Shown: positions 13,571-50,722, counted from the first letter of the stretch. The stretch: DNA of 64,000 nucleotides from Chloroflexota bacterium (GCA_021325635.1 JAJPGV010000039.1:23668-87667); one strand, 5' to 3'. The notes: generated by a model not told the origin, from the sequence alone. Numbers and translations: made by a program.

Positions 13571-13630
13571 GACCCTCGCTCCTCGAGATGGGTTGGAACA
13601 CCCTCTGCGGGCAAGGTAAGGCGACCCAGG

Positions 13631-13667
13631 TAAAGAACCGCTAAGAGCCGAAGAAATGTGCAGGAAA
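13631..13667 (-). promoter_or_regulatory. 11-bp-phased direct repeat array upstream of the FnIII gene
   Basis: + strand TAAA 13631, TAAG 13642, GAAA 13653, GAAA 13664. Confidence 0.5.
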
Positions 13668-13956
13668 TGTTTGGGTATAAATGCTCACTGGCGCAGTGCA
13701 GCCATTCCGGCAATGACAGCCAGCCGAACAGCAGAAGAGGCCCGGATTTGGGCTCCGAGCCTCGCGGAGCAGCCCGGCCTCCTGGCATTGGCTTGCTCCT
13801 CACGGTCCCAGGTGTTTCTCCCGAGCCCGCTCTGTACGTCAAGCATGTCTCAGCCGCCCGCAACGGCGCGCAAAGGACCAGCAAACGTTGAGTAACGGTT
13901 TTGTGCCACTTGGCCACTTGGACGATTGGCAGCGAGCATGCCCGTGGCCAGCCATT

Positions 13957-13982
13957 CTTAGGCGCCCTTTTCCAGCCGTTTA
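13957..13982 (+). promoter_or_regulatory. 11-bp-phased direct repeat array
   Basis: CTTA 13957, TTTT 13968, TTTA 13979. Confidence 0.45.
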
Positions 13983-14029
13983 CGGCTTTGTCGGCTGAAG
14001 CCGCCTATGCTGCAGATGGAGCCCAAGGC

Positions 14030-14491
14030 ATGGAGGCACTGAGCCGCGAAGCCGCGACGACCGTGTTGGCGCGAAACAGGCTAGGCCACCTCGGCTGTTT
14101 TTCCGTCAGCAGCGATCGCTCCTATGTCGTGCCCGTGTCGTACATCTACAGCCAGGGCTCGCTTTATGCCGCCTCAATCGCGGGACAGAAGCTGCGCTAC
14201 CTTCGCGAGCACCCTGCCGGCGTGTGCCTGGAAGTGGAAGAGGTTGACGATCAGCTCAACTGGACCAGCGTCATCGTCACGGGCCGCTTCGAAGAGGTGA
14301 CCGGCACGGAACGTTTTTCCCGAGCGGCGGATGCGCTGTACCGGGCGGTCCGTGGACCGCTTTGGCCTGCCCTAGCGAACACCGACATCCTGCAGGAGCC
14401 CGAGCAGGCCGTGCTGTGGGCTTTGCGCGTTGAGGAAATCAGCGGCCGGCGAGAAAAATGGGACCTGGCCGAAGCGTACAAGTACTGGTAA
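14030..14491 (+). CDS. Pyridoxamine 5'-phosphate oxidase-like flavin-binding protein (NimA/PNPOx_2)
   Basis: LGHLGC....YVVPVSY, GQKLRYLREHP.GVCLEVE, WTSVIVTGRFEE. Confidence 0.85.
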   Translation: MEALSREAATTVLARNRLGHLGCFSVSSDRSYVVPVSYIYSQGSLYAASIAGQKLRYLREHPAGVCLEVEEVDDQLNWTSVIVTGRFEEVTGTERFSRAADALYRAVRGPLWPALANTDILQEPEQAVLWALRVEEISGRREKWDLAEAYKYW

Positions 14492-14514
14492 ACGCACGTC
14501 ACCTGGGAGGAGGT

Positions 14515-15123
14515 ATGAGGCTGGCAATTGGCGTCATGGGCTCCTCCGGACCGCCGTACGAGGACGGCGCCTGGGACAAGCTGGTACAGCTCGGACGCCG
14601 CATCGCTGAGCGTGACTGCATCTTGCTCACCGGCGCCTGCCCAGGGTTGCCTTATGCGGCCGTGCAGGGAGTCAAGGAATGCGGCGGCCTCGCTGTCGGC
14701 ATTTCTCCGGCGCTCTCGCTTCAGGAGCACGTGCAGCGCTTCGACTCGCCGGCGGATGGTTTCGACGTGCTCATCTACACCGGTTCCGGCCTCATGGCCA
14801 GGGAGATCGAGAACATTCGCTCGTCGGACATCGTGGTCATAGCCGGAGGACGCTCAGGCACGCTGGGGGAATTCGCCATTGCTTACGACGAAGGCCGGTT
14901 GATTGGGGTGCTCACCGGGACTGGCGGCATCGCTGACGCCGTGGCGGACTTGGTACGGCTGTGCGCCAAGGACACGGGAGCTGCCGTGCTCTACGATGGC
15001 GATCCGGTGCAGCTCGTAGACCGGCTCATCGAGCACTATCAGACCGAGCACTTCAAGAAACCGAGCGTATTCGCACACAGAAACCGCCTGGAAGCGTTCC
15101 GTAAGATGAGCTCCGGCAGCTGA
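14515..15123 (+). CDS. SLOG/LOG superfamily protein (TIGR00725-like)
   Basis: IGVMGSS, LTGACPGLP, GLMAREIENIRSSD, GGRSGTLGEF; GGAGG RBS. Confidence 0.85.
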   Translation: MRLAIGVMGSSGPPYEDGAWDKLVQLGRRIAERDCILLTGACPGLPYAAVQGVKECGGLAVGISPALSLQEHVQRFDSPADGFDVLIYTGSGLMAREIENIRSSDIVVIAGGRSGTLGEFAIAYDEGRLIGVLTGTGGIADAVADLVRLCAKDTGAAVLYDGDPVQLVDRLIEHYQTEHFKKPSVFAHRNRLEAFRKMSSGS

Positions 15124-15138
15124 ATCGAGGCGGCAATC

Positions 15139-15771
15139 CTATTCGACGCCGGCAATATCGAGCTCTTCGACGACTTCGCGAACGCCAGGTAAACGGCCGG
15201 CAACCTCCTCCGCGTTCTCGACGTCCTCGATGCTCAGCACGCGACCACGCAGGTGCACGATCCCCTCTTCGACACAGACGCGAATCGGCAGATCGGTCGT
15301 GGCTGCGTCCTCGCGCAGCTCCCGGCGCACGGCTTCGGCCAGAGCATCGTCTCCGGGGCCCACGCCAGACACCGACGGCTCGACTTCAAGCGAATCCATC
15401 GACGTGGCATCGAATCCCCCAACCACCTCGCCGTTCTCCAGCACGGGATCCGTCGGCGGGAAGTACGTGCTCGCGCCATTGTCCTCGGGCGCTCCGAGGA
15501 CCACTGCCGGTTCCTGTCCGAATGGCTCTTCGAGATACTCGTATTCGCCGGCTTGGGGTTCAGCAGGCTCCAGCTCGACGACGTCGAGGTTGTTCTCAAT
15601 TCTTCTGTTTTCGGCCACATGCCCGGCGATCTCTTCGGCCAGCGAACGCTCGCTAAGGTCGTTTACCGTGCCGTCGAGCAGGACCCCCTCCTCCGTCAAG
15701 CCCACATGCACGTAGATGCCGGCCTCGGCCAGCTTGTCCTCAATTCGATCCGCCAGCGACTCCCGTTCCAT
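15139..15771 (-). CDS. Dual BON-domain protein with an acidic linker and no signal peptide
   Basis: VLLDGTV...IENNLDV and VHLRGRV...AGRLPGVREVVEEL. Confidence 0.8.
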   Translation of the reverse strand: MERESLADRIEDKLAEAGIYVHVGLTEEGVLLDGTVNDLSERSLAEEIAGHVAENRRIENNLDVVELEPAEPQAGEYEYLEEPFGQEPAVVLGAPEDNGASTYFPPTDPVLENGEVVGGFDATSMDSLEVEPSVSGVGPGDDALAEAVRRELREDAATTDLPIRVCVEEGIVHLRGRVLSIEDVENAEEVAGRLPGVREVVEELDIAGVE

Positions 15772-15780
15772 TGCACTCTC

Positions 15781-16734
15781 CTAATGCGACATTGCCACTA
15801 TTTCGGGTTCCCCGGCGACATGAGCCAGCACCTTGCGCGGAGCTGCCCGCTCGTCGGCAGCCGGATGAGCCGGCTCGTGTCCGAGCCGCCTCAGGGCTTC
15901 ACGGCCCAGAACCATCAGCGGCACATGGCTGCGCCGGAGAACCGCCTCGCCCACTGTGCTCATATGCTCACGATCCAAGGGCGTTCGTCCATGCGTCGCG
16001 AACGCGACCAGATCCACCTGCTCGCGCCCGCAAACCTCGACGATTTCGCGCGCCGGCTCGCCCAACGTGATTCTCTGGACCATGACCGGTCGCCGGGGCT
16101 CGTGGGCCTTCGTGGAATCGATCTCGCCGGGCGTCAATCCGTCAACCACCTGGCCGACAGCCGACAGCATCTTGTAGGTGGCGCGCTCCGGTTCCGGAAC
16201 AGGCTCGAAGACGTGGAACAGCAACACTTCAGCCCCAAACGCCTCGGTCAACCGGCGAAGGGGCGCCAGCACGGCCTCGGCGCGCGACGAGCCGTTCAGG
16301 GGCACCAGGATGCGTCTGAAACGAGGCAGCCCGGGGGCGTCCACGCTGGCCGGGATGAGAAACACCGGCACTGGTGAAAGGTCAATCACCTCTTCAGCCA
16401 CGCTGCCAAGGACGCTCCTCAGCAAGCCGGCGCGGCTGTGCGAGGCCATCACCACGGCCCACGCATCGCGCTCGCGAACTTCGTCGGCGATGGTTGGTCC
16501 CACGTAGCCGCAGCGACTTTGCGTCTCCGGGTCCAGGCCGTACTGCCGGCGCACGTGCCAGTACGCGGCGTGCAACGCTGCCTGCGCGTCACGCCCATTG
16601 TTGAAGCTGGGTTCGGGCTCATGCACGTGAAGCAGCACGAGCGTCAGGTCCATCTCGCGAGCCAACGTACAGGCCAACGGCAGCGCCCGCTCAGAAAGCG
16701 GCGACCCGTCAAGCGGCACGATGATGGCACTCAT
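15781..16734 (-). CDS. Universal stress protein (tandem USP domains)
   Basis: IIVPLDGSPLSERAL, MASHSRAG...LGSVAE; second domain ILVPLNGS. Confidence 0.9.
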   Translation of the reverse strand: MSAIIVPLDGSPLSERALPLACTLAREMDLTLVLLHVHEPEPSFNNGRDAQAALHAAYWHVRRQYGLDPETQSRCGYVGPTIADEVRERDAWAVVMASHSRAGLLRSVLGSVAEEVIDLSPVPVFLIPASVDAPGLPRFRRILVPLNGSSRAEAVLAPLRRLTEAFGAEVLLFHVFEPVPEPERATYKMLSAVGQVVDGLTPGEIDSTKAHEPRRPVMVQRITLGEPAREIVEVCGREQVDLVAFATHGRTPLDREHMSTVGEAVLRRSHVPLMVLGREALRRLGHEPAHPAADERAAPRKVLAHVAGEPEIVAMSH

Positions 16735-16887
16735 AGCTCGACCTCCCATGGGGTTCAGGACGTTCAGGACGAGCTGCGGAACTCAACCCGTATAGCGCTG
16801 GCGGTGGCCCTTCAGGAGAGCTGCCGCAAAGCCCGGATCTGTTTCGCCCTTCAGGCTTACCATAAGCAGTGGCTCACAACGAAGCCG

Positions 16888-16924
16888 TCAATCTGAGCTA
16901 AAGCTCCCGTTAAAGGGTCACGAA
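16888..16924 (-). promoter_or_regulatory. 11-bp-phased direct repeat array
   Basis: + strand TCAA 16888, TAAA 16899, TTAA 16910, CGAA 16921. Confidence 0.5.
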
Positions 16925-16939
16925 GCCGCGCCTGACAGA

Positions 16940-17827
16940 TCAGGCCGACAGCGCTGCCGGTCGCAGCACCAGGACCGGCATACTCGCCCGCTGCACGACA
17001 CCGAGGGCCACACTGCCCAGAACCACGCGGGCAACCCCCGAACGTCCATGCGTAGCCATGACAATGGCGGCGGCCTGCTCAGCCTCGGCCAGCTCAGCAA
17101 TCGTTGCCGCCGCATACCCCACCAGGGTGTCCGTATCGACAGCCCATCCATCCGAACCAAGCCGCTTTGCCCAGTCCGTGAGATACGGCTTGGCCTGTTC
17201 CACCCACTCCTCGACGTTCAAATAGCCATAGCCGGCTGGGACCTCGTAGGCCACGGCCGGCGGCGGCTCAATAACCTGCACCAGGCTCAGATTTGCGTCC
17301 AGAGCGCGCGCCAATTCTTTGGCCGGAACGAGCGCCTCCTCGGCCAGAGGAGAGCCATCCAGCGGTACGAGAACCGTGGACTTCCGGCCGTGCACCCATT
17401 CATGCTCGCAATGAGCAGGCACGAGCAGCAGAGGACGGCTCGCAAGCCTCAAGACCCGTTCGGCCACGCTGCCGTAGGCCCAGCGTGCCAGTCCGCCGCG
17501 CCCGTGCGTGGACATGACGATGAGGTCTAGGTCATGCGATTTCGCCACGCCATCGATAATCGACGCCGGCTCGCCAGGGAGGACTAGCGCCTCGGCCGAA
17601 ACCTGGTCTGCGGCCAGTCGTCGAACCTCGGCCTGCAGCTCCGCTTCGATCTCCGGCTTCTGGTCTAGCTCCCTCTCGATCGCTTCGTGGGGCGTGGAAG
17701 CCCAGGTTCGCACAGCTCGCAGGAGAACGAGGTGGCCACCAGCCACTTTCGCCAGAAAGGCTGCATGAGGCAGAGCCTTACGGGCCAGGTCCGAGCCGTC
17801 CAGCGGCACCAGTATCTTGGCGAACAT
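16940..17827 (-). CDS. Universal stress protein (tandem USP domains)
   Basis: ILVPLDGS, MSTHGRGGLARWAYGSVAE, MATHGRSG...LGSVA. Confidence 0.95.
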   Translation of the reverse strand: MFAKILVPLDGSDLARKALPHAAFLAKVAGGHLVLLRAVRTWASTPHEAIERELDQKPEIEAELQAEVRRLAADQVSAEALVLPGEPASIIDGVAKSHDLDLIVMSTHGRGGLARWAYGSVAERVLRLASRPLLLVPAHCEHEWVHGRKSTVLVPLDGSPLAEEALVPAKELARALDANLSLVQVIEPPPAVAYEVPAGYGYLNVEEWVEQAKPYLTDWAKRLGSDGWAVDTDTLVGYAAATIAELAEAEQAAAIVMATHGRSGVARVVLGSVALGVVQRASMPVLVLRPAALSA

Positions 17828-17852
17828 CGCTTGCTCCCGGCGAAGCCCCGGC

Positions 17853-18310
17853 CTAGAGCGGTGTCGCCACGGCGGGCAGGCCGTGGGCCACGATGTCGTT
17901 GGTGACGCCGCGCACCCCTTCGATGGCGCGCACCACTCGTTCCACGTCTCTGCGCTGGCGCTCGGAATCGACCGTACCGGTCAGCCTCACCCAGCCGGCC
18001 GAGACCGTCGCATGAATGCGTTCACCCGGCAATTGGCGATGGCCACCGAGCTCGCCCCGCACCAGCCGGGCGATGTCCGCATCGGCGTGTGCCAGGCTCA
18101 CCGGAAAGCGCACCACAATGTCATTGACAACGTCCTTTACACCCGGGACTCGGTGGGCAGCCTCCTGCGCCGCGGCACGCTGCGCCCAATGCTCCACGGT
18201 ACCCTGCAAGACGACTACACCATGGTCGACCTGGACCGTTATCGATGACGTGGGACCTGGCGGTCCCATTCCAGCTCTCGTACAACGCACTGTCGCAGAT
18301 CAGCGTCCAT
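17853..18310 (-). pseudogene. Dual BON-domain (OsmY-like) gene with a 1-bp frameshift near 18253
   Basis: RBS plus ATG at 18310 reads MDADLRQCVVRELEWDRQV, a BON N-terminus. The rest (TSSITVQVDHGVVVLQGTV) is in another frame; one extra base in GGG 18252-18254 restores the ORF. Confidence 0.75.
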
Positions 18311-18363
18311 AAGTCTCGTCCCCTTTCGGCCGGTCGCTCATCTCGATCATCCGCCGAGGGGCA

Positions 18364-18400
18364 TCAATTCGACGTTGACGCCGAGTGAAGCGCCCGTCAA
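18364..18400 (-). promoter_or_regulatory. 11-bp-phased direct repeat array
   Basis: + strand TCAA 18364, TTGA 18375, TGAA 18386, TCAA 18397. Confidence 0.5.
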
Positions 18401-18427
18401 ATCTGCGCCACGGTAGGAAGGCGGCTG

Positions 18428-18625
18428 TCAGGGGGCCCGGAGCATGAAAATCTGCCGCCGAAACTGGATGATCTTGCGCACGATCTCGTCGGCTGACTCG
18501 AGAACCACCATGCGCTTGGTGTGAGCGAAGGTGATCACCGTGTCAGGCGTCTCCTCCACGGTCTCAATGAGGTCGCTGCTGATGATCACCTTGGTGCCAT
18601 TGAGGCGAGTGACGGCAATCATCAC
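18428..18625 (-). CDS. flbD: Flagellar FlbD (SwrD) family protein
   Basis: MIAVTRLNGTKVIISSDLIETVEETPDTVITF...VVLES.DEIVRKIIQFRR is a close match to the FlbD consensus. Confidence 0.9.
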   Translation of the reverse strand: MMIAVTRLNGTKVIISSDLIETVEETPDTVITFAHTKRMVVLESADEIVRKIIQFRRQIFMLRAP

Positions 18626-18654
18626 AGTCGGCGTTGCATCGACCTACATGCGCC

Positions 18655-18915
18655 TCAGCGCTGCACCTCCGCGGCGGAGCGATCCACGAGGTAGCCTACA
18701 CAGCCGTCGAGGGTAGACATCCTGAGATAGTCGCGCTCCGGCACGTCGAGCCCAAACAGCTCATTGAGTCCAAGGGCGAAGTTGAGGAAGTCCATCGAAT
18801 CCAGGTCGAGATGCTCTCGCAAGTCCTGGCGCGGATCAATTGCCTCCAGGTCGGCCTCGGGCGCCATCCGGCCGAGCATCTCCAGCACCCTCTGACGTGT
18901 TTCTTCAGAGGTCAT
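18655..18915 (-). CDS. Acyl carrier protein
   Basis: LDLDSMD phosphopantetheine site; APEAD and PERDY motifs; start MTSEET at 18915. Confidence 0.85.
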   Translation of the reverse strand: MTSEETRQRVLEMLGRMAPEADLEAIDPRQDLREHLDLDSMDFLNFALGLNELFGLDVPERDYLRMSTLDGCVGYLVDRSAAEVQR

Positions 18916-19034
18916 AGCTTTTCGGGCTCCTGCAGTCAAGGAAAAACCCGCCACCGGCGACCGCCGTTCTACAGCCTGCACGTCCTTCTCCATACCGGCC
19001 ATGCTCAACACGCCGCCCGGCAGCCCGGCTGGAG

Positions 19035-19071
19035 TTGATCCGCTTTTTTCGTCCTGTTTACGCAGCAATCA
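19035..19071 (+). promoter_or_regulatory. 11-bp-phased direct repeat array
   Basis: TTGA 19035, TTTT 19046, TTTA 19057, ATCA 19068. Confidence 0.5.
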
Positions 19072-19116
19072 CGGCCTGGCGGCAACACTTGGAGCAAAAG
19101 GCTCGCGAGGCAGAAC

Positions 19117-20283
19117 ATGCAGCGTCTCACTACTTGCAGTCTAGGTCGTGCCTGGGCGCCTTTGCTCGTGGCGATCGCGCTTCTCGCGGCGGGTCCGCTG
19201 GCGGCAAGGGCCAACCAGACGTCGAATAACGCCGTCGTGGTGATGGCGGATACCGGATTCCAACCCATTGCCGTCAACATCCCCGTGGATGGAACGGTTA
19301 CCTGGATCAACCGAGGATCGAGCGTCCACACCGCCACGACAATCGGCGGCGCCCCTCTGCCCTTCACCACCGGCGGACTCGGCCCGGGAGAGACAACCAG
19401 CTTCACCTTCGGAACGTCCGGCCGCTACTATTACACCTCCTCTACGGACTGCCTCAACGGAGTCAACAACGCGGCCTTCCCATGCAGTATCAGCTACCTC
19501 GTCCAGGTTGGTCCGGCTCCTTCGATCGTGCCCTATGTGCCGGCCACACCCACCCCACAACCCGCAGCTGTGGCTCCGCTGCCAGCGGTCGAGCAGCCGT
19601 CAGCGAGTGGGCTGCCCCAGGCCGCCACTCTTAACATCACGGATACGGGCATTTCCCCACGTTCGGTCAGCATCGCTCTGAATGGCAGCGTGACCTGGAT
19701 CGACCAGGGCGGCGCCGTGCATACGGCAACAAGCCTGCCGGGCATCTTCCCCGGATTCGACACCGGCGGTCTGGGCTGGGCACAGAGCGCCAACGTCGTC
19801 TTCACCACCCCCGGCAGGTATGAATACACGTCCGCTCCCGACTGCCTGAACAACAGCTACACGCCCGGCTTCGACTGCGGGCCATACACAGTGGAAGTGA
19901 GCAGTAGCCCGGTCATCGTCCCGGCGGCTCCAACGCCAGTCCCTACGCAGGCGCCATACCTCGCGGCGCCCGCCCCGAACACGACTGTTGCTCTGGACGA
20001 AGTTGGCGGCTTCCAGCCGTATACCCTGCTCATCAAGGCAGGCCAGATTGTGACGTGGACTAATCGAGGGAGCCTGGTGCACAGTGTGGTCAGCGACCCA
20101 GGCTACATCCCCGCTTTTGACTCAGGCGGGCTTGCCCCAGGCGATAGCTTCTCGGTGACGTTCAGCCAACCGGGCTCTTTTGGCTACCATTCGTCGACCG
20201 AGCCCATCTACAGCCACGACACCAGCTGCGACTGCACCGTCACCACGTACACACTCAAGGGCGTCGTCCAGGTCTCCAGCTAA
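19117..20283 (+). CDS. Secreted protein with three cupredoxin-like domains and non-canonical Cu ligands
   Basis: Signal peptide; three repeats of VTW.(N/D).G..VH, GGL..., F...G.(Y/F).Y.S. Confidence 0.75.
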   Translation: MQRLTTCSLGRAWAPLLVAIALLAAGPLAARANQTSNNAVVVMADTGFQPIAVNIPVDGTVTWINRGSSVHTATTIGGAPLPFTTGGLGPGETTSFTFGTSGRYYYTSSTDCLNGVNNAAFPCSISYLVQVGPAPSIVPYVPATPTPQPAAVAPLPAVEQPSASGLPQAATLNITDTGISPRSVSIALNGSVTWIDQGGAVHTATSLPGIFPGFDTGGLGWAQSANVVFTTPGRYEYTSAPDCLNNSYTPGFDCGPYTVEVSSSPVIVPAAPTPVPTQAPYLAAPAPNTTVALDEVGGFQPYTLLIKAGQIVTWTNRGSLVHSVVSDPGYIPAFDSGGLAPGDSFSVTFSQPGSFGYHSSTEPIYSHDTSCDCTVTTYTLKGVVQVSS

Positions 20284-20303
20284 TTTAGCGCCACAGTCAC
20301 GCC

Positions 20304-20340
20304 TTATTCGCACGTTAACGGCGAATTCATCCGCTGTTTG
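20304..20340 (+). promoter_or_regulatory. 11-bp-phased direct repeat array
   Basis: TTAT 20304, TTAA 20315, TTCA 20326, TTTG 20337. Confidence 0.5.
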
Positions 20341-20406
20341 TCGTGGTGCGGACAAGATGAAGAGAGAAGCCACACGCCTCAGAGGCGCCTTCTTAGGAGC
20401 ATCGTC

Positions 20407-21537
20407 ATGCGAGCATACCCCCAGAACCTGGCGCAGACTGTCGAGCATCTGCAGCATCGTCCCCCCGACGGGCAGGTCCTGTCTGTCTACGCGGACGTCA
20501 GCCCGCGGGCACGCACCGAAGAGCGCGTGCTGGTCGCCTTCCGAGAAGAATGCCGGGAGCTGCGCAAAGCCCTTCCGGAAGGCCAGCGGACGGCTTTCAA
20601 TCGGGCGGCGCAGCGAGCTGAGCGGCTTCTGGTTGAAGACCGAGCGCCGGCGACGGCGGGCCTGGCCGTCTTCGTTACCGAGACCGGCAAGGTGTTGGAG
20701 CAGGTCGATCTTCCGGACCCCCCACTCCCCGGCATGAGCTGGTCGGTCACGCCACGCCTGGAGCCCCTCGAGGAGGTGCTCGACGACTACGAGCGTATAG
20801 CCGTGCTGCTGTTCGACAAGGAGCGTGCGCGAATATACACAGTGTTCCTGGGGCAGATCGAAGAACGCCATGAGCTGACGGACGAAGCGCCTGGGAAACA
20901 GGCCACCGGCGAGTGGTTCGGCCTGGCCCAGACCCGTTACGAACGGCATCACATGGACCATGTGCTGCGACACGCCAAGCGCGCCACTCGGACGCTAATG
21001 GACGTCCAGCGCGAGCATCCGTTCGACCGGCTGTTCCTGGCGGGAACCGACGAGGCGCTGGCGGCGCTGCGCTCCCAGCTTCCGTCCGCGCTGCGCGCGA
21101 GGTTGGCTGGTGAGCTCCAACTGGAGCTGTTCGCCCCGGAAGGCGAGGTGCTGGCGGCAGCCCTGCGCCAGGCCGAAGCCGCGGAGCGCGCTGACGAGCT
21201 GCAAGAAGTGGCAAGGCTGTTCGAGGCTGCTCGGCAGCGCTACCCGGCGATCGGCATCGACAGCACCCTTCAGGCGGCCAGCGATGATCGCATCCACCGG
21301 CTGGTCGTAGCCGACACCTTTGGACCGACCGGTCACGAGTGCCCGCAATGCGGCTTGCTGAGCCAGGCGGACGAGGTGTGCGGCCGCTGCGGCGCGAAGA
21401 CCGAGCCGGTGCCGGACCTCAAGGAGGCAGTCGTGCAGCGGAGCCTCAAGGCCGGCGCCAGCATCGAAGTCGTCTCCGGCGAGGCCGCCGCCCAGCTCAT
21501 GACCGCTGGCGGAATTGGTGCCTGGACAAGGTATTGA
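20407..21537 (+). CDS. Bacterial aeRF1-like protein (baeRF10/Balon-like) with a C-terminal Zn ribbon
   Basis: VLSVYADV, PRLEPL..VLDDYER, DKERARIY, FDRLFLAG, CPQC...CGRC, GGIGAWTRY. Confidence 0.8.
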   Translation: MRAYPQNLAQTVEHLQHRPPDGQVLSVYADVSPRARTEERVLVAFREECRELRKALPEGQRTAFNRAAQRAERLLVEDRAPATAGLAVFVTETGKVLEQVDLPDPPLPGMSWSVTPRLEPLEEVLDDYERIAVLLFDKERARIYTVFLGQIEERHELTDEAPGKQATGEWFGLAQTRYERHHMDHVLRHAKRATRTLMDVQREHPFDRLFLAGTDEALAALRSQLPSALRARLAGELQLELFAPEGEVLAAALRQAEAAERADELQEVARLFEAARQRYPAIGIDSTLQAASDDRIHRLVVADTFGPTGHECPQCGLLSQADEVCGRCGAKTEPVPDLKEAVVQRSLKAGASIEVVSGEAAAQLMTAGGIGAWTRY

Positions 21538-21692
21538 CCGCGGGCAAACAGCCGCAATCGGCACACCTGCTGCAGCGCGGGGGCTTGTCTCCCACGGGTT
21601 AGCCGGAGCTCCCATGAGAAGGCGAACGGAGACCGGCGGGCCGTAAGAGCTGCATGGGATCAGTCGGGACGCGAACGAGCGGGCGAATGGGC

Positions 21693-22847
21693 TCAGGCTG
21701 CGCGCTGACGTTCGGCCTGGGGCCTGGCCTCGGCCAGGGCTGTCCTCAGCTCCATGAAACGGGCGATGTCGAGGAGCGTAAGCAGACCAAGGACTTGCTC
21801 CTCATCCATGACCACGACGTAGTCCGCGTGCCTGGAGCCCATCTCCGTCAGAACGTCGGTAAGAAGTCGCTCAGACGGAGAGACGATTTCCTGCTCGAGC
21901 GGATGCATGATAGCTCGCGCAGGCGTCGAGCCCCACAGCTCCCGAGCAACGCGCCGGACCTGTTTCAGATCGGCGATGCCGACCAACTGCGATGCCTGCA
22001 TCACCAGCACAGCTCGCTCGCCGTACTGGAGCATGGCAGCGGCTAGATCGGCGACGGCCGCGTCGCCTTCCACCACACGCGGCGAACCCTTGAGCAACTC
22101 GCCGACCTTCACCCCCACGAACGCCGATTGGACGTCCATTGCATGAGTGGTTTGCTCGGTCGCCTGGATCAGAAACCAACCGATGAACGCTATCCACAGA
22201 CCGCCCGCCACGTTTCCGGCAAACAGCTGCAGCATGCCAAGGGCGATGAGCCCATAAGCAACGCCCTTGCCCGCCGAAGCCGCGATTCGGGTAGCGCGCG
22301 CCAAGTCCCGTGTGATACCCCACAGCACCGACCGCAGCACACGGCCACCATCAAGCGGAAAGCCGGGCAGCAGGTTGAAGGCCCCCAGGATGGCATTGAT
22401 CAACGCCAGGTATTCCGCCATGGCCGTCAAGGGCAGACTCACCTGGGACGTCAGCAGCGACGCGGCGTACGCTACCCCCGAAACAACAAAGCTGGCGATG
22501 GGCCCCGCGATGGCAACCAGGAACTCCGTCGAAGCTCGCGTGGGCTCGCCCTTCAGCTCAGAGATGCCTCCGAAGACGAACATCGTTATGGAGTGCACCT
22601 CCAGGCCGTGGGCCCGCGCCACGAGCGAATGGCTCAGCTCATGAACGACGACAGAAGCGAATAGCAAGAGCGCGGAAACGACGGCCAGGATCCAGGTCGT
22701 TGGCCGATCGAGCAGGGGATAGCTCTCCGGGAAGTAGCCTGCGCCGAGGGACCAGGTAACCAGGGCAAAGATCAACAGCCAGCTGGCGTGAACCCGAATC
22801 TCGATGCCCCACACCCGGGCGATACGCAACGAAGCGCGCATGTTCAC
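21693..22847 (-). CDS. Site-2 protease (M50) with CBS domains
   Basis: VHELSH, AIAGP, FNLLPGFPLDGGRVL; C-terminal CBS pair. Confidence 0.95.
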   Translation of the reverse strand: MNMRASLRIARVWGIEIRVHASWLLIFALVTWSLGAGYFPESYPLLDRPTTWILAVVSALLLFASVVVHELSHSLVARAHGLEVHSITMFVFGGISELKGEPTRASTEFLVAIAGPIASFVVSGVAYAASLLTSQVSLPLTAMAEYLALINAILGAFNLLPGFPLDGGRVLRSVLWGITRDLARATRIAASAGKGVAYGLIALGMLQLFAGNVAGGLWIAFIGWFLIQATEQTTHAMDVQSAFVGVKVGELLKGSPRVVEGDAAVADLAAAMLQYGERAVLVMQASQLVGIADLKQVRRVARELWGSTPARAIMHPLEQEIVSPSERLLTDVLTEMGSRHADYVVVMDEEQVLGLLTLLDIARFMELRTALAEARPQAERQRAA

Positions 22848-22992
22848 TTCCTTCCCACCGCCTGAGGGCTAGGAGCATGCCCGGAATGCGATTCCCGGTG
22901 CATTCCCTCCGCCCGAAAAACGGATCAGCATTCGCAACGTCCGCTCCGACGGTGCCCCTCCCCCGCCGCCTTCGATCGTTCCCGGCATGGTC

Positions 22993-23490
22993 TTAGTCCT
23001 TGATAGCAAGCTTCTTCTGCGGCGGCGTAGGGCCCGACGACAGGAGGGTGACGGTGAGCATCCCATCCTTGAGCTTCGCCTCGGCCCTGTCGGCGTCCAC
23101 GTCATTGGGCAGACGAAGCGTTCGGGTGAAAGAGCTGGAGTACTGCTCTCTCACAAAGTAGTCTCTCTCGGCGGGCTCCTGCGGCTCGGTGCGCAAGCGC
23201 CGTACGGTGAGGACGTCACCTTCGATCGTGGCTTCAATCTCCTCCGGCTTGGCGCCGGGCAGCCCAATCTTGACGACGATTCGGCCGTCTTCCTTGAACA
23301 TGTCGACCGCCGGCTGCAGCTTGCCGGACGGCGGCTCGCACGGCAGCCAATCCCATGGCCACGAGGCGAGTCGCTCCATGACCTCCGCCAACCTTCGGAT
23401 CTCTGTTCTCCACGGGTCCCGCATCAGACGATCGAGCTCCAGCAGCGTCAAACGTTCTCGCTTGGTGCTTGTGTCAGCCATGTGTGCCAA
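22993..23490 (-). CDS. Hsp20/alpha-crystallin small heat shock protein
   Basis: PAVDM.....LPG.KPEEI, FTRTLRLP, AEAKLKDGMLTVTL. Confidence 0.9.
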   Translation of the reverse strand: MAHMADTSTKRERLTLLELDRLMRDPWRTEIRRLAEVMERLASWPWDWLPCEPPSGKLQPAVDMFKEDGRIVVKIGLPGAKPEEIEATIEGDVLTVRRLRTEPQEPAERDYFVREQYSSSFTRTLRLPNDVDADRAEAKLKDGMLTVTLLSSGPTPPQKKLAIKD

Positions 23491-23509
23491 TCAACCTCCT
23501 TAGCCGGCC

Positions 23510-26110
23510 TCACGCGGCCGGATTGGCGCTGGGCTCACCGCGACCTCGCCCGGGAGCCGGCTGCCGCCGCCTCAGACGTGGCGTGCGTGGCCCGACCTCC
23601 GCCGGAGTGCGCTCGCGCAACTCGGGCTGCTCTACCGGCCGGTTGTAGCTTTTCAAGCGCTCGGCGTATTCCCGCAGCCGGTGATCGACCGAGCCGTTGA
23701 CGGTGCCGTCCGGCCACGTTTCATCGAGGTCACGCCGGCCGGCAGGAACGCCAGCAAGAATCTCGATAGCTTGGTCCACCGTATCCACCGCCCAGACGTG
23801 GAAACGCCCCTCACGAGCGCTGTCGACGATGTCCTCCCTGAGCATCAGGTGGTTGACGTTCCGCCGCGGGATGATCACCCCCTGATCGCCGCTGAGACCC
23901 TTCGACTTACAGGTGTCGTAAAAGCCTTCGATCTTGCGGGTTACTCCCCCAACCGGCTGGACCTCGCCCAACTGATTCACCGAGCCGGTGATGGCAATGT
24001 CCTGCCGCAACGGCACGGTACCCAGCGCCGACAGGAGCGCGCACAGCTCGGCGCAGGAAGCGCTATCGCCCTCGATCTCGTCGTAGGTCTGCTCGAACGT
24101 GATACGCGCAGCCAGCGCCAGCGGCTTGTCTTGGGCATATCGGGCCATGAAGAACGTAGTCAGGATGAGGAAGCCCTTGTTGTGAATGCGGCCACTGAGC
24201 CTGGTCTCCCGCTCCAGGTTCATGACCCCCTCGCTGCCGAGGGATGTTTGAGCCGTAATGCGCACCGGCCGGCCGAAAGAGTAGTCGCCAACGTCCAGGA
24301 CCGACAGCGCGTTGACCTGCCCAACGCGGGACCCGGACGTATCGATGAGCAGGGTCCCTTCCTCCATGAGGTCGCTCAGCTTCTCTTCGAACAGGTTGGA
24401 GCGGAAGGTCCGGGCCTCGATAGCCTGCCGGACGTGTTCGGCAGTTACTATCTGGCCGCCCGCCTGGCCCGCCGCGTGACTGGCTTCCACAACCACGTCA
24501 CCGATGTCCTTGAAGCGGGCGCTGAGCCGGCCCTGATGCTCGGTCAAGCGAGCGCCGTATTCGGCAATCTTGGCGACGGCGCTTCGGTCGAAATGCCTGA
24601 GCTTGAGCTCCCGAACCTGGCTGCTCACAAACCCGGCGTAGCTTGCCAGCTGCTCGGCATTGGTCTTGAGCTCATTGTCGAAGTCGGCCCGAACTCGGAA
24701 GAGCTTCGGAAAGTCCTCGTCGTAGAAATACAGGAGGTAGTAGATGCGCGGCAGGCCGATCAGGACGACCTTCACGTCCAGTGGAATGGGCTGCGGGCGC
24801 AGGGTCGCGGCCGGAAAGGCCATGTACTGCTCGCCCAGGTTCTCGATTCGCAGCTCGCCGGTCTGCAGAGCCCTCTTGAGTGTATTCCAGGCAAATGGGC
24901 TGCCCAGAACATCCAGCGCGTTGAGCACCAGGTAGCCGCCATTCGCCCGATGCAGAGCGCCGGCCTTGATCATCGCGAAATCCGTGACCATGGCCCCGAG
25001 CTGGCCGCGGTACTCGATCCGGCCCAGCAGGTTGTAGTACGTGGGGTTGGACTCGAACACCACGGGGGCGCCGGCCAGACCCTGGTTGTTGACCAGGACG
25101 TTCACCTGGTAGCGCCTGAAGACGGCGTCCTCAGCCTCACCACGCATCTGCTGGAGAAGCTGGGGCAGGGAACCCTGCTCCGACTCGCCGGCCTCACCCT
25201 GGCGCCAGATCTCCTCGTCATGAGTCACCAGGTCTTCCTGGGCCTGCAGCAGGTAATCGACAATCGCCGGTTGATCCTGGTACTTCTCCTGCAGGACCTT
25301 GATGAGCGGGGCAATCGTCGATCGCGCCACCTGCTGATGCAGCTCGGCCATGCGCTCATGGGCGTCCTTTTCGAACTGCCGGATCTGCTCCCACACGTCC
25401 ATGAAGGCTCGACTGATCTCCTCGCCATGCTGGAGGAGGCCGGCACGCTTGTCCTCCGGCAGACTATCCAGCTCTTCAGGCTTCATCGGCCGGCCGTGCA
25501 CGATGGGGATGACAGCCGGACCGCCGGGAGTGATGGTGATGCCCAGGCCTTCCTTTTCCGCCTGCTCACTGAGGCCGTGCAGCAGCCGGTCGCGGGGCTC
25601 GGTAACCGCTCTGTGCACCTCTTCTTGCGCCCGCCGGTACTCACGGCTTTCGAACACGCGCCGAAGGTCTCGCCGCACGTTAGCAATCAGTTGCCGCACG
25701 TCCTCCTGGAACACCACCGCTCGGCCCGGTGGCAGGCTGATGGCGGCAGGTTGAGCCGGGTCCTTGAAGTTGAAGACGTAGCACCAGTCGTCAGGGGCCG
25801 GGCGGCGAGCTGCCAGCTGGCGAAGATACAGCGCCGCGGTGGTCCTGCGGCCGGTTCCGGAGGGCCCGGCGACGAAAAGATTGAAGCCCGGCGCCTCGGT
25901 GGCGAGGCCAAAGGACAGCGCGCTGAGTGCACGCGGCTGACCCACCGTCCCATCCAGGGGCGGTACCTGCTCGGTGGTGTCGAAGGGAAAGGCCGTCGGA
26001 TCGCACGTCCAGCGCAGCTGCGCCGGCGAAACTTCGAGCGGACGGGTATCCACTGCGTCTGGGGTCGGTTGCTGGCCGTTTGGCGACGGCGGGCGGGCGG
26101 ACCTGTCCAT
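23510..26110 (-). CDS. Lon-like protease of the LonC/AAA_32 type
   Basis: GQPRA, GALHRANGGYL, Ser-Lys dyad EGDSAS...KIEGF; degenerate Walker A GPSGTGRRT. Confidence 0.9.
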   Translation of the reverse strand: MDRSARPPSPNGQQPTPDAVDTRPLEVSPAQLRWTCDPTAFPFDTTEQVPPLDGTVGQPRALSALSFGLATEAPGFNLFVAGPSGTGRRTTAALYLRQLAARRPAPDDWCYVFNFKDPAQPAAISLPPGRAVVFQEDVRQLIANVRRDLRRVFESREYRRAQEEVHRAVTEPRDRLLHGLSEQAEKEGLGITITPGGPAVIPIVHGRPMKPEELDSLPEDKRAGLLQHGEEISRAFMDVWEQIRQFEKDAHERMAELHQQVARSTIAPLIKVLQEKYQDQPAIVDYLLQAQEDLVTHDEEIWRQGEAGESEQGSLPQLLQQMRGEAEDAVFRRYQVNVLVNNQGLAGAPVVFESNPTYYNLLGRIEYRGQLGAMVTDFAMIKAGALHRANGGYLVLNALDVLGSPFAWNTLKRALQTGELRIENLGEQYMAFPAATLRPQPIPLDVKVVLIGLPRIYYLLYFYDEDFPKLFRVRADFDNELKTNAEQLASYAGFVSSQVRELKLRHFDRSAVAKIAEYGARLTEHQGRLSARFKDIGDVVVEASHAAGQAGGQIVTAEHVRQAIEARTFRSNLFEEKLSDLMEEGTLLIDTSGSRVGQVNALSVLDVGDYSFGRPVRITAQTSLGSEGVMNLERETRLSGRIHNKGFLILTTFFMARYAQDKPLALAARITFEQTYDEIEGDSASCAELCALLSALGTVPLRQDIAITGSVNQLGEVQPVGGVTRKIEGFYDTCKSKGLSGDQGVIIPRRNVNHLMLREDIVDSAREGRFHVWAVDTVDQAIEILAGVPAGRRDLDETWPDGTVNGSVDHRLREYAERLKSYNRPVEQPELRERTPAEVGPRTPRLRRRQPAPGRGRGEPSANPAA

Positions 26111-26134
26111 GCACTCATGCTCCCCTCCGGGCGC

Positions 26135-26171
26135 TAAACGCCCACTAAAGCCGCTGGCAACCGCCGATAAA
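26135..26171 (-). promoter_or_regulatory. 11-bp-phased direct repeat array
   Basis: + strand TAAA 26135, TAAA 26146, GCAA 26157, TAAA 26168. Confidence 0.55.
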
Positions 26172-26215
26172 TTCCGCCCCTGGCTCGGGCGGGGGCGCTT
26201 GTGGCCGAAAGCCGC

Positions 26216-26404
26216 TCAGTCTTGGATGGGAGCGAGCTCCGGAAGGCGCGCCAAGAAGGACACGATGATTTGCTCGTCCTGCTTCAGTCCCTGCCGAAAC
26301 TCATAGTTCTCCGTGTCCCGGATCTCCATCCGCAGGTCGCCCAGGTAGTTCCGCAAGACACCCCCGATCACGGCTACTTCTTGGTCGCTGAAATCGAGTT
26401 GCAT
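26216..26404 (-). CDS. Small hypothetical protein (62 aa)
   Basis: RBS AGGAG; helical sequence LRNYLGDLRMEIRDTENYEFRQGLK; has its own phased-repeat promoter. Confidence 0.7.
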   Translation of the reverse strand: MQLDFSDQEVAVIGGVLRNYLGDLRMEIRDTENYEFRQGLKQDEQIIVSFLARLPELAPIQD

Positions 26405-26446
26405 AAGCCACCTTCTCCTGTTGCTTCGAGCCTAGGAACGAGGAAG

Positions 26447-26483
26447 CCAACACCCGGCAAATGACACGAAAACGTTGCATAAA
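26447..26483 (-). promoter_or_regulatory. 11-bp-phased direct repeat array
   Basis: + strand CCAA 26447, CAAA 26458, AAAA 26469, TAAA 26480. Confidence 0.45.
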
Positions 26484-26613
26484 CGGCGAACGCACTGGGG
26501 CTTCACGGTCGCCGCTGTCCCTCCCTGCTCGCGCCGGACGTGCCCGCACAAATCGGGCCCTGCTCGTTGGCCCGTGCATGGTCATCCCCCTCTCTGCCGG
26601 CAGCAGGACCGGC

Positions 26614-26650
26614 TTTAGCACCCGTTTGCACGTCCTTGACGGGAAGTTCG
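26614..26650 (+). promoter_or_regulatory. 11-bp-phased direct repeat array upstream of the coo-pnt operon
   Basis: TTTA 26614, TTTG 26625, TTGA 26636, TTCG 26647. Confidence 0.55.
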
Positions 26651-26713
26651 CGCGGCGCTGCCTACCGTACTCCTGTAGGCCTTGCCTCACATCAACCAGC
26701 AGGTGCAGACGTC

Positions 26714-27454
26714 ATGACCATGGGGCTTCGATCCGAGCGCCAAAGGCGGGCGCCACGCAGCGTGTTCGTGAACCCCGAGCACTGCATTGGCTGCCGCCAG
26801 TGCGAGTTCGCCTGCGCTGTCGAGCACTCGCGGAGCAACGACCAGTTCGCCGCCTTCCTCGAGGATCCTGTGCCTCGCACGAGGGTGCACGTCGAGGCGG
26901 GGGACGTGCCCTCGACCTCGTTCCCGAACCGCTGCCGCCATTGCGATCCGGCTCCCTGCCAGCAAGTCTGCCCGACCGGAGCCGTCAGCCGCGACGACGA
27001 GATGGGCGTTGTCCTCATCGAGGCTACGCGCTGCATCGGCTGCGCCATGTGCGCCGTCGTCTGCCCGTTCGACGTCATCAGCTTCTATCCGCTGGCCGAA
27101 GGGCCCGATCCACAGACCGCCGTCGCCGTCAAGTGCGACGGTTGTATCGACCGACAGCGCCGCCACGAGGTTCCGGCTTGCGCCGAAGCCTGCAAAGTGG
27201 AAGCGCTGGTGTACGGCGAGCTGAACGAGCTGATCCGGTCCGGCCGGGTGCGCGAAACCCGCGCGGTGCTAGGGGCGGCGGACCTCACTCACCAGCCAGC
27301 CGCCGACCCGCTCGCCGGCTGGCACGCCTGGGGTGATGAAATCCTCACGGTCGCGGCCGCGGCGCACATGCCGGGGCACAACCACCATAACGGGCACGGC
27401 AATGGGCACGGCCCGGCCAAGAGCACTAACAAGAGCGATGGAGGTTCCCGATGA
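26714..27454 (+). CDS. cooF: CooF-type 4x[4Fe-4S] electron-transfer subunit with a His-rich C-terminal tail
   Basis: CIGCRQCEFAC, CRHCDPAPCQQVCP, CIGCAMCAVVCP, KCDGC...PACAEAC; overlaps cooS by ATGA. Confidence 0.9.
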   Translation: MTMGLRSERQRRAPRSVFVNPEHCIGCRQCEFACAVEHSRSNDQFAAFLEDPVPRTRVHVEAGDVPSTSFPNRCRHCDPAPCQQVCPTGAVSRDDEMGVVLIEATRCIGCAMCAVVCPFDVISFYPLAEGPDPQTAVAVKCDGCIDRQRRHEVPACAEACKVEALVYGELNELIRSGRVRETRAVLGAADLTHQPAADPLAGWHAWGDEILTVAAAAHMPGHNHHNGHGNGHGPAKSTNKSDGGSR

Positions 27455-29397: not shown

Positions 29398-29402
29398 GCC
29401 AG

Positions 29403-30281
29403 ATGTGCGACGTCGACGAGCGGCATCAGCACGCGGTTGATGCCGCCATAGCAGGCGGCGAAGGGCTGCGCACGGTGGTCGTGGGCAAGGGGGGAGTGGG
29501 GAAATCGACGATCACCGCGCTGCTGGCCCGCATTCTCGCGCGGCGAGGAGCCCAGGTGCTGGCTGTCGACGCTGATGAGCAGCGTAACCTCGCAGCTACC
29601 CTGGGCCTCGCCGCCGCCGCCGCCGCAATCGTTCCCCTGGCCGAACAGGCCGACTACGTCGAAGAGAAGACGGGCGCTCGGCCGGGTGAAGGGTCGGGCG
29701 GCATACTGCGGCTCAATCCCGACGTCTCGGACGTCGTCGAGCGCCTGGGCGTTCCGGCGCCAGATGGCGTCCGCTTGCTGGTCATGGGCACGGTGCGCCG
29801 CGCCGGAAGCGGCTGCCTCTGTCCGGAGCACTCACTGTTAGCGGCAACCGTGGGCGGCATGAGCCTGCGCCGAGGTGAAGTGGTGCTGATGGATACCCAC
29901 GCCGGCGTAGAACATTTCGGCCGCGCGCTGGCCCGCGGCTTCGATCGGGCGCTCGTGGTAGTCGATCCCACCTTCAACGCCATGCACGTTGGCGTCGAAG
30001 CGGCGCGTCTCTCGATCGACCTCGGAATCCATGACGTCCGACTGCTGGTCAACCGCGTGCGTGGGCCCGACGACCTGTGCCGCGCTCTGGACAACATCAG
30101 CCGAGCGGGTGACTTTGCCTTCCACTCGCTGCACGCGCTGCCCTACGACGAGCTAGCCATGGCGAGTGAGCCGGCAGTCGACGAGCTGCTGCGCGGGTCG
30201 GATCTGGCCGGCGCCGTTGGCGCGCTGGCGGCCGAGCTGGTTCCGGCAGCCACCACTCCCATCCTCCAGGCGGTGCGCTGA
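29403..30281 (+). CDS. cooC: CODH nickel-insertion ATPase
   Basis: GKGGVGKST deviant Walker A, DAD..NL, GSGCLCPE Ni-binding motif, DTHAGVEHFGR. Confidence 0.93.
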   Translation: MCDVDERHQHAVDAAIAGGEGLRTVVVGKGGVGKSTITALLARILARRGAQVLAVDADEQRNLAATLGLAAAAAAIVPLAEQADYVEEKTGARPGEGSGGILRLNPDVSDVVERLGVPAPDGVRLLVMGTVRRAGSGCLCPEHSLLAATVGGMSLRRGEVVLMDTHAGVEHFGRALARGFDRALVVVDPTFNAMHVGVEAARLSIDLGIHDVRLLVNRVRGPDDLCRALDNISRAGDFAFHSLHALPYDELAMASEPAVDELLRGSDLAGAVGALAAELVPAATTPILQAVR

Positions 30282-32744: not shown

Positions 32745-32754
32745 GGAGGCATTG

Positions 32755-36680: not shown

Positions 36681-36741
36681 GACGGTCAGCGGTGTCCACG
36701 CTAGCGTGTGAAACGAAGACATGATTTCGTGGAGGGCGCAG

Positions 36742-36993: not shown

Positions 36994-37000
36994 GATCCCG

Positions 37001-42754: not shown

Positions 42755-42824
42755 GGCTCCCTCCCTTTGCTTATCGCATGGAGCCTACCTCAGCCCGACC
42801 AAATACTCCATCGCTGTTTTGCCG

Positions 42825-49038: not shown

Positions 49039-49222
49039 GGCTGCCTCCTCGTGAATCACGTTTTGCCTGGGCGAACGCCGGCTCACGCCTAATGAGTCAG
49101 GGTTAGGCCAGCGCTGCCCTCCTCGAAACCAACGCTAGCCAGGGCCGCGCAAGAGCCACGCTAGCGCCAAATAATGCGCTCGTTAGAAATGCGGCGACGT
49201 GGTGCGGACAATAGGCACGGGC

Positions 49223-50719: not shown

Positions 50720-50722
50720 CGT

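Follow-up and report, generated by a model that had tools for sequence, protein, structure and literature searches.

An 11-bp-phased array of TT units precedes a CO dehydrogenase operon and stress genes in a Chloroflexota gene cluster

Introduction

The boxes bound by PhoP of Bacillus subtilis lie at -60 to -20. We report here on an element that resembles them, an oriented array of units that start with TT and recur every 11 bp. It precedes nine transcription units, among them a nickel-CO dehydrogenase operon and genes for stress proteins, within a 64-kb stretch of DNA from a Chloroflexota bacterium (GCA_021325635.1, JAJPGV010000039.1:23668-87667; the whole stretch of 64,000 nucleotides is called the window, and positions are counted from its first letter). 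The published accounts of the closest described systems are cited for those of their passages that deal with the sites. PhoP of B. subtilis has four TT(A/T/C)ACA-like boxes with 11-bp periodicity on the coding strand, and the pstS site of a lactobacillus has four (T/A)T(T/G)ACA units (PMC11870197). Two, four or six PhoP molecules, arranged as tandem dimers, displace the contact of sigma region 4 with the -35 element (PMC11825685). GlnR binds as four protomers, head to tail, at 5-bp sites (gTnAc or GaAAC) separated by six bases; these sites surround a non-optimal -35 element upstream of the -10 element, i.e., at about -64 to -20 (PMC10235972). In SARP sites the repeats are spaced 11 or 22 bp from one another, the 3' repeat being 8 bp away from the -10 element; the afs box spans -40 to -19, overlapping the -35 element and the spacer (PMC10936776).

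CO dehydrogenase operons are controlled by CooA, of the CRP/FNR family, and by RcoM/CoxC, of the LytTR kind. Sites of the CooA type are dyad-symmetric. The site of DosR, a regulator of the NarL type, is a 20-bp palindrome, and the targets of DosR include universal stress proteins (USPs), Hsp20 and a PNPOx-like protein. The passages on RcoM/CoxC describe three direct repeats of 8 bp that start with TT (TTNNNGCN), with spacers of 12-13 bp (PMC11347149). The mycobacterial proteins of the Balon kind, i.e., Rv2629 and Msmeg1130, block translation and are hypoxia-induced, and genes of this kind are often found together with those for Hsp20 and alternative sigma factors in stress operons (PMC10901736).

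Results

Phased TT repeats

The sequence examined was this single window, on both strands, as the only DNA taken from the genome; its G+C content is 62-69% throughout. A first-pass annotation had proposed that an AT-rich tetramer of the form TT[N][A/G] recurs three to four times at exactly 11-bp spacing in front of the CO operon and the stress genes. AT-rich tetramers are present at all 35 of the coordinates that it gave, and 31 of them start with TT on the sense strand, but only 24 fit the full pattern; the tetramer therefore stood in part, with TT as the real signal. The signal was tested in its simplest form, i.e., TT at p, p+d and p+2d on either strand. Over the whole window there were 23 such triples at d = 11, compared with 0-12 at the other spacings from 6 to 18, where the larger counts fell at multiples of 3 because of the codon periodicity of coding DNA. 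Four TT in a row occurred 7 times at 11 bp (0-2 at other spacings), and four-of-five matches 16 times (0-4 at other spacings).

As a control, the window was shuffled 300 times inside 100-bp blocks with dinucleotides preserved, a procedure that keeps the local AT-richness of the gaps between genes. At d = 11 the shuffled windows held 3.84 ± 2.13 triples (maximum 13) and 0.16 quadruples (maximum 2). Coding and noncoding DNA were separated by a curated gene map, with the cluster defined as 13,571-26,713. Its noncoding DNA (1,934 bases) contained 18 TT triples at d = 11, and 0-1 at each other spacing from 7 to 16, with a single triple at d = 9. The noncoding DNA elsewhere in the window (3,011 bases) held none at d = 11, and none of the 19 noncoding segments outside the cluster carried an array. 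Coding DNA had 5 triples at d = 11, inside the range of the other spacings. The TT-TT autocorrelation of the noncoding DNA of the cluster gave peaks at lags of 11 (37 pairs), 22 (25 pairs) and 32-33 (14 and 14 pairs) over a baseline of 2-15, whereas that of the noncoding DNA outside the cluster was flat at 1-9. TT followed by AA was depleted at lag 11 in the cluster, with 2 pairs as opposed to the 37 for TT followed by TT.

An outside control was provided by 80 loci fetched as LonC homologues, of which 38 have a G+C content of at least 0.58. These 38 loci showed no excess of TT at d = 11; quadruples at that spacing occurred in two of them, one each, and the few TT triples in ten of the high-G+C loci resemble ordinary coding sequence. 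Phased arrays were thus not equally frequent in other intergenic or convergent DNA, either of the window or of the control loci. The idea that chance, or a by-product of local composition, accounts for the arrays can point to the somewhat higher TT density of the noncoding DNA of the cluster, i.e., 100 per kb compared with 72 per kb in noncoding DNA elsewhere. However, the block shuffles never reached the observed triples and quadruples, the enrichment within the same cluster DNA is at 11 bp only, and all nine arrays keep a fixed distance to a downstream hexamer (below). Within the limits of one 64-kb window this explanation is already refuted, and we regard it as next to impossible. The TT array signal is real and far beyond chance, and the 11-bp-phased, oriented element is specific to this cluster. 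The exact spacing claimed in the annotation is borne out by triples, quadruples and the noncoding subset, each enriched at 11 bp only, and by the autocorrelation. Its proposal that the cooF-cooS operon has an element in common with the stress and dormancy genes is upheld, and the enrichment is confined to the cluster.

The nine arrays and their promoters

When arrays of at least three TT units were merged, 16 were found in the window, 13 of them within 13.6-26.7 kb. Eight are sites already given in the first-pass annotation; its ninth, before a BON gene (TT, TT, TC, TT), appears in the list of three-of-four matches. The FnIII array (13613-13667, minus strand) has units that begin TTTCC, TTTCT, CTTAG and TTTAC, followed by the hexamer TACCTT at 13618-13613. 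In the PNPOx-SLOG array (13957-14011, plus strand) the units begin CTTAG, TTTTC, TTTAC and GTCGG, with TATGCT at 14006-14011. The USP-BON array, located in the gap between the two USP genes (16859-16924, minus strand), has five units, beginning TTCGT, TTAAC, TTTAG, TTGAC and GTTGT, and then TATGGT at 16864-16859. The array of the second BON-USP pair (18346-18400, minus strand) reads TTGAC, TTCAC, TCAAC and TTGAT, with GATGAT at 18351-18346; that of the cupredoxin gene (19035-19089, plus strand) reads TTGAT, TTTTC, TTTAC and ATCAC, with AACACT at 19084-19089; and that of the Balon-like gene of baeRF family 10 (20304-20358, plus strand) reads TTATT, TTAAC, TTCAT and TTTGT, with CAAGAT at 20353-20358. 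Units starting TTTAT, TTGCC, TTTAG and TTTAG make up the LonC-Hsp20 array (26117-26171, minus strand), before GAGCAT at 26122-26117. The gene for a 62-residue protein is preceded by TTTAT, TTTTC, TTTGC and TTGGC and by TAGGCT at 26434-26429 (26429-26483, minus strand), and cooF by TTTAG, TTTGC, TTGAC and TTCGC and by TACCGT at 26663-26668 (26614-26668, plus strand).

Array orientation follows the downstream gene, as the annotation had stated, with TT on the sense strand in nine of nine cases. In the four tandem gaps (those of the USP, second BON, baeRF and LonC genes) TT lies each time on the sense strand of the gene that follows. Three divergent gaps hold five arrays (FnIII, PNPOx, cupredoxin, 62-residue protein and cooF), each of which lies nearer to its own gene and points toward it; there is no array in any of the convergent gaps. 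The last unit lies 28-77 bp before the likely start codon, or 146 bp in the case of the USP array, which, as the annotation had said, stands in a tandem gap before the likely ATG at 16,734 of the minus-strand USP gene.

Alignment of the nine promoters revealed a feature that goes beyond the earlier observations, i.e., the distance from the array to a -10-like hexamer is fixed. The hexamer, nAnnnT, begins 48-49 bp after the first unit in all nine arrays (60 bp in the five-unit USP array), and five of the nine hexamers are TAnnnT (TACCTT, TATGCT, TATGGT, TAGGCT and TACCGT). Six arrays have nAnnnT at an offset of 49; at no other offset between 0 and 94 do as many as three arrays share it. Given a background of 0.033 for nAnnnT in the noncoding DNA of the window and four allowed offsets, the binomial P value for nine of nine is ~8e-9, and that for TAnnnT in five of nine ~8e-8, both of them generous values since the offsets were picked after the alignment had been viewed. 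Anchored on the hexamer, the nine arrays share one register of four 11-bp units, five bases and the hexamer, and unit 4 starts 16 bp before the hexamer in all nine. If the hexamer is taken as -12 to -7, the units are predicted to start near -61, -50, -39 and -28.

In this register the unit consensus is TTtAC followed by six bases that are mostly G+C. TT stands at the start of 30 of 36 units, and 20 of 36 have T at position 3. G or C predominates at positions 6-8; at position 6 it occurs in 29 of 36 units, with A in 2 of 36. The pattern TT[TGA]A[CG] matches 12 of 36 units, and unit 3 is the best kept (TTGACGG, TTTACGG, TTTACGC and similar). A -35 hexamer was not found at spacers of 16-19 bp in any of the nine promoters, the best match to TTGACA being at most 3 of 6; TTGAC in unit 3 could serve as one only with a spacer of 21 bp. 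A consensus scan for canonical sigma-70 promoters between 13,400 and 27,000 yielded 0, and inspection of the arrays by eye revealed no dyads of the FNR/CRP type. In eight of the nine promoters the predicted transcription start lies upstream of the ribosome-binding site and start codon, with predicted 5' leaders of 12-118 nt.

A scan of the window with a position weight matrix (PWM) built on the arrays produced no convincing member outside the cluster. The best non-member, at 49,153 (minus strand, 12.4 bits), is upstream of BON-groES-groEL, and the next is a site in coding sequence at 22,645 (minus strand, 11.7 bits). No array precedes the stress genes in other parts of the window (three Hsp20 genes, BON-groES-groEL and an Hsp20-sigma-Balon unit), and there are no in-phase chains of three TT upstream of two Hsp20 genes, the third BON gene, groES, the Crp gene or the DUF2249 gene. 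An origin of the arrays from a mobile element or a duplicated promoter was considered and rejected, as no longer similarity or repeat family joins them.

Two extra three-unit TT arrays, absent from the earlier list, lie back to back in the 459-bp divergent gap between the FnIII and PNPOx genes, at 13895 to 13863 (minus strand) and 13888 to 13920 (plus strand), partly overlapping around a core rich in AACGTT. The minus-strand array has CATGCT at the expected offset, and no coding open reading frame (ORF) follows it; small ORFs in the gap (13,571-14,029) have no coding bias in GC-frame statistics. The remaining merged arrays are in coding sequence (22678, 15104 and 10404) or at the start of a phosphoribosyltransferase gene (55093). 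Three isolated arrays are probably due to chance, with promoter-model scores of at most 11.7 bits, i.e., one antisense at the 3' end of an Nramp gene (42818-42861, plus strand), one inside the M50 coding sequence (22642-22678, minus strand) and one at the start of the phosphoribosyltransferase gene (55060-55093, minus strand).

Target genes

The gene map was based on Pfam and NCBIfam scans of the 71 translations of the window, according to which the gene labels of the first-pass annotation are essentially right. The first target encodes a fibronectin type III (FnIII) repeat protein of 791 residues (11195-13570, minus strand). The PNPOx-like gene (Pyridox_ox_2; 14030-14491, plus strand) forms a unit (14030-15123) with a gene for a SLOG cluster-4 protein (14458-15123, plus strand). 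Two minus-strand units each combine a tandem-USP protein with a BON protein, in opposite orders: in the unit 15139-16734 the USP gene (15781-16734) is first and BON (15139-15771) follows, and in the unit 16940-18290 BON (17853-18290) is first and USP (16940-17827) follows. Plus-strand ORFs at 15253-16896 overlie the real minus-strand USP and BON genes (15139-16749) with convincing GC-frame statistics, and such shadow ORFs are a trap for composition-based gene calls in G+C-rich DNA.

Further targets are the genes for a cupredoxin/amicyanin-like protein (19117-20283, plus strand) and for the Balon-like protein of baeRF family 10 (20407-21537, plus strand), labelled aeRF1-like in the first-pass annotation. 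The nearest NCBIfam model to the latter is the MSMEG_1130-family ribosome hibernation factor (E 8.5e-23), with a match of 81 bits that is far below the cut-off of that model, 480 bits. A second baeRF family 10 gene lies in a plus-strand unit at 60828-63289, after Hsp20 and ECF-type sigma genes with overlaps of 4 bp. It lacks a TT array, which suggests that the two paralogues are controlled differently. An Hsp20 gene (22993-23481, minus strand) shares the target unit 22993-26110 with a LonC-type protease gene (23510-26110, minus strand), the gap between them being 19 bp. The 62-residue protein (26216-26404, minus strand) has no family match, but the G+C content of its gene at codon positions 3 (GC3, 0.78) and 2 (GC2, 0.29) indicates a real coding sequence.

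The last target is the plus-strand unit 26714-34496. It begins with cooF (26714-27454) and cooS, for the catalytic subunit of an anaerobic CO dehydrogenase (27451-29397; 711 bits to the model), and continues on the same strand with genes for a cooC-like ATPase, an FAD/NAD oxidoreductase and a pntA/pntB transhydrogenase up to 34496. That the operon reaches this far is predicted from gene spacing. The transhydrogenase downstream of cooF-cooS-cooC is in three parts, i.e., pntAA, pntAB and pntB. The presence of oxidoreductase and transhydrogenase genes points to CO oxidation feeding NAD(P)H and not a hydrogenase.

Two transcription units inside the cluster are without an array: the gene for an M50 protease with CBS domains (21693-22847, minus strand), and an FlbD-like gene (18428-18625, minus strand) with the ACP-like gene that adjoins it on the same strand (the pair spans 18428-18917). 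The FlbD-family protein (65 residues, 87 bits), a small protein of a flagellar family, is unexplained in this context.

Discussion

A local regulon is well supported by these findings. Direct repeats on one strand, an 11-bp period, and a -35 element overlapped or replaced by repeats of which the last lies a fixed 8-10 bp before the -10 element are features of OmpR/PhoB-type sites. These three are seen here, in agreement with the tandem-site geometry proposed in the first-pass annotation (units in a head-to-tail row of four, of which the last starts 16 bp ahead of a -10-like hexamer, with the -35 element missing). By analogy, we lean slightly towards the view that a winged-helix protein of the OmpR/PhoB kind binds the arrays as two tandem dimers and recruits polymerase. 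Each array would then be the upstream half of an activator-dependent promoter, in which four head-to-tail 11-bp units would occupy about -61 to -18 in place of the -35 hexamer and end 5 bp before a -10 hexamer of the sigma-A type. The reader, encoded outside the window, might belong to the response regulators or be a relative of the orphan or SARP-like sort; its two tandem dimers would sit on one face of the helix. It would switch on nine transcription units together, i.e., the nickel-CO dehydrogenase along with the genes for electron transfer and transhydrogenase, and a group of persistence proteins (USP, BON, Hsp20, LonC, the Balon-like hibernation factor, the PNPOx-like protein and cupredoxin). 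We infer the transcription starts, the family to which the binder belongs, its role as an activator and not a repressor, and the signal, which from the gene content is probably limitation of energy or oxygen.

Several observations weigh against an OmpR/PhoB-type activator, in addition to the generous P values mentioned above. Beyond TT the unit is weakly conserved, with A at position 4 in 22 of 36 units and C at position 5 in 20 of 36 (never A), and its information content is ~6.07 bits, mostly in TT, where typical OmpR-family boxes have a better core of 6-7 bp. When each member was left out of the PWM in turn, FnIII (-12.7), PNPOx (-5.8) and baeRF (-2.1) scored near or below the 99.9th percentile of the window (-3.2). 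In the LonC promoter, the start of transcription predicted from GAGCAT coincides with the A of the ATG (26110), implying a leaderless mRNA, which conflicts with GGAGGGGAG just upstream of that ATG (26108-26138, minus strand). The 71 translations include no Response_reg or Trans_reg_C protein, as the annotation had anticipated in placing the regulator elsewhere; with no winged-helix regulator gene in the window, nothing therefore ties the arrays to a protein. Comparison with other genomes also failed to add support. The closest relatives of LonC are proteins from metagenome-assembled genomes of Chloroflexota, with 52-58% identity. At the 80 LonC-query loci, the best of which has 58% identity, the upstream regions do not align by eye; of 17 cluster proteins, homologues occur at only five loci, and the gene order is not conserved at any of them; and TT arrays beyond chance were not seen at the high-G+C Chloroflexota loci.

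In its mechanics the element is closest to the sites of PhoP, GlnR and SARP, as far as their published descriptions go. With B. subtilis PhoP it shares four direct repeats on the coding strand, an 11-bp period, a unit that starts TT-N-A-C, and boxes in place of the -35 element. The units here are, however, more degenerate, with G or C rather than A at position 6, and their targets are stress and CO-oxidation genes rather than phosphate genes, in a Chloroflexota host and a window that has no PhoP/PhoR genes. With the boxes of actinobacterial GlnR, the arrays share four sites, six-base gaps, a poor -35 element and TnAC, and the TnAC of the unit TT-t-A-C is common to the PhoP and GlnR cores. Unlike GlnR boxes, the units do not alternate between a-type and b-type sites, and GlnR is an orphan regulator of Actinobacteria that controls nitrogen genes. 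The SARP/AfsR boxes are likewise similar; a heptamer core would here be 9 bp from the hexamer (the last unit starting 16 bp before it). SARP repeats are, however, G+C-rich heptamers, usually two or three in number, and their targets are antibiotic clusters.

In gene content the nearest likeness is to the mycobacterial DosR regulon, which shares with the cluster USPs, Hsp20, a PNPOx-like protein and a hypoxia-induced hibernation factor of the Balon/Rv2629 type (PMC10901736 for Balon). The likeness is one of function and not of mechanism, for the element here is an array of direct repeats rather than a palindrome. A search for the core of a DosR-like palindrome, GGGAC-N4-GTCCC, with at most one mismatch gave 3 hits in the window compared with 4.18 expected, none of them in 13.5-27 kb. 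RcoM/CoxC controls CO dehydrogenase operons from direct repeats that start with TT, and these two points of likeness hold for the cluster; its site, as described in the passages cited above, was rejected as a model, having three repeats of TTNNNGCN with a period of 20-21 bp, as opposed to four units with a period of 11 bp here. CooA also controls CO dehydrogenase operons, but its dyad sites are unlike the direct repeats here. CooA was likewise rejected as the regulator: the sole CRP-family gene of the window (39,969-40,649) is 13 kb away, and its product is closer to cAMP-type CRPs (4ev0, 1.4e-25) than to CooA (2hkx, 1.1e-8).

Units of ~6 bits are weaker than typical OmpR-family boxes, so that other head-to-tail DNA-binding proteins come into consideration. 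One such reading, an unlikely one, is that a different oligomerizing binder, activator or repressor, reads mainly the narrow minor groove of the AT-rich tetramers, e.g., a small winged helix-turn-helix (HTH) protein like BldC or a member of an undescribed family. The information is indeed concentrated in a 4-bp AT-rich patch while the rest of the unit is degenerate, and BldC is a known precedent for directional shape readout, binding two to four degenerate direct repeats that each consist of an AT-rich tetramer and G+C-rich bases (PMC5859096). The unit described there for BldC, AATTXXXX(C), is, however, 9 bp long, a 36-mer containing four of them, whereas the period here is exactly 11 bp with no enrichment at 9 bp (1 triple). 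The scans of the window detected no small HTH protein of the MerR kind, and the fixed -10 distance and missing -35 element fit class II activation of the OmpR type at least as well. A bolder version, to which we also give little weight, makes the arrays a promoter class of this Chloroflexota lineage. Four minimal TT steps would be read mainly by shape, the reader being not a classical phosphorylated OmpR-type protein but an undescribed head-to-tail factor or a holoenzyme with a lineage-specific subunit; it would be the master switch of a dormancy programme that includes the nickel-CO dehydrogenase, i.e., a non-orthologous counterpart of DosR.

It is quite improbable that no specific regulator is involved and that the phased T-rich patches bend DNA, or dock RNA polymerase alpha in the manner of UP elements, to give strong constitutive promoters. 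One AT-rich patch per turn on one face does resemble phased curvature and UP elements, and the low sequence specificity of the units fits, but runs of at least four T or A occur in only 3 of 36 units, and a TpA or TpG step is present in most units. In phase, TT is never exchanged for AA, as is evident from the 2 TT..AA and 37 TT..TT pairs at lag 11, and the strand rule holds in nine of nine arrays; the phased A-tract bending that the annotation offered as an alternative is thus disfavoured. RNA polymerase alpha does not bind between -35 and -10, which is where the fourth unit lies, and arrays are absent from all 19 of the noncoding segments beyond the cluster, though these must contain promoters too. 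A shade less probable still is that the arrays are true PHO boxes and the cluster part of the phosphate-starvation regulon of PhoP/PhoB. The TTnAC-like units, four in number with 11-bp periodicity on the coding strand, do recall the B. subtilis boxes as described (PMC11870197). None of the nine target units is phosphate-related, however, the window yielded no pst or pho gene, and position 6 has the G or C noted above where a PHO box has A. We consider it highly unlikely that the arrays are part of promoters read by an alternative sigma factor, such as the ECF-type sigma at 61,290-62,051 next to the second Balon-like gene. That sigma gene stands beside Hsp20 and a paralogue of one target, and Balon genes are described as often being near alternative sigma factors (PMC10901736). 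Against this, the downstream element, TAnnnT or nAnnnT, is of the housekeeping type. ECF promoters have a -10 element of the CGT type. A sigma factor, moreover, reads two elements rather than four phased ones, and there is no array in the sigma gene's own neighbourhood (60,740-60,827).

If the arrays do mark promoters of an OmpR/PhoB-type activator, the mechanism would be of a well-known kind, and the regulon, its content and its host would be new. Literature searches on promoters, regulons and binding motifs of Chloroflexi found no prior description among titles and abstracts, which is not proof of absence. Very little is known of transcription control in uncultured Chloroflexota, and the set of arrays amounts to a cleanly delimited regulon. 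It puts one promoter design before a CO dehydrogenase operon of the anaerobic type, which includes an NAD(P) transhydrogenase, and before persistence proteins that include a hibernation factor of the Balon type. By analogy, 'dormancy functions' would be a reasonable label for the target set. Control in common with cooFS-pntAB would supply reductant to resting cells. Co-induction, if true, would tie trace-gas oxidation mechanistically to dormancy in this phylum and constitute a programme like that of DosR in function, with a different class of cis-element. The motif is also a handle for finding the regulator and the remaining regulon.

Other loci of the window

The motif ACGCTAGC occurs 5 times in the window compared with 1.47 expected, a count that 2 of 100 shuffles reach, and its sites include 36697-36708, 43963-43970, 49132-49139 and 49158-49165. 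In the divergent gap between the DUF2249 and WD40 genes it forms a perfect palindrome, CACGCTAGCGTG, and it occurs twice, 26 bp apart, upstream of BON-groES-groEL. It may be the site of another regulator. The gene for the CRP/FNR-family regulator (39969-40649, minus strand) lies beside genes for DUF2249, two COX1/NnrS-like membrane proteins and a small protein (36712-40067, plus strand). LigD is present as three separate genes, for phosphoesterase, ligase and primase-polymerase (49223-54140, minus strand). These are followed by genes for Fpg and a membrane protein like lipase maturation factor, forming a repair module among the stress genes.

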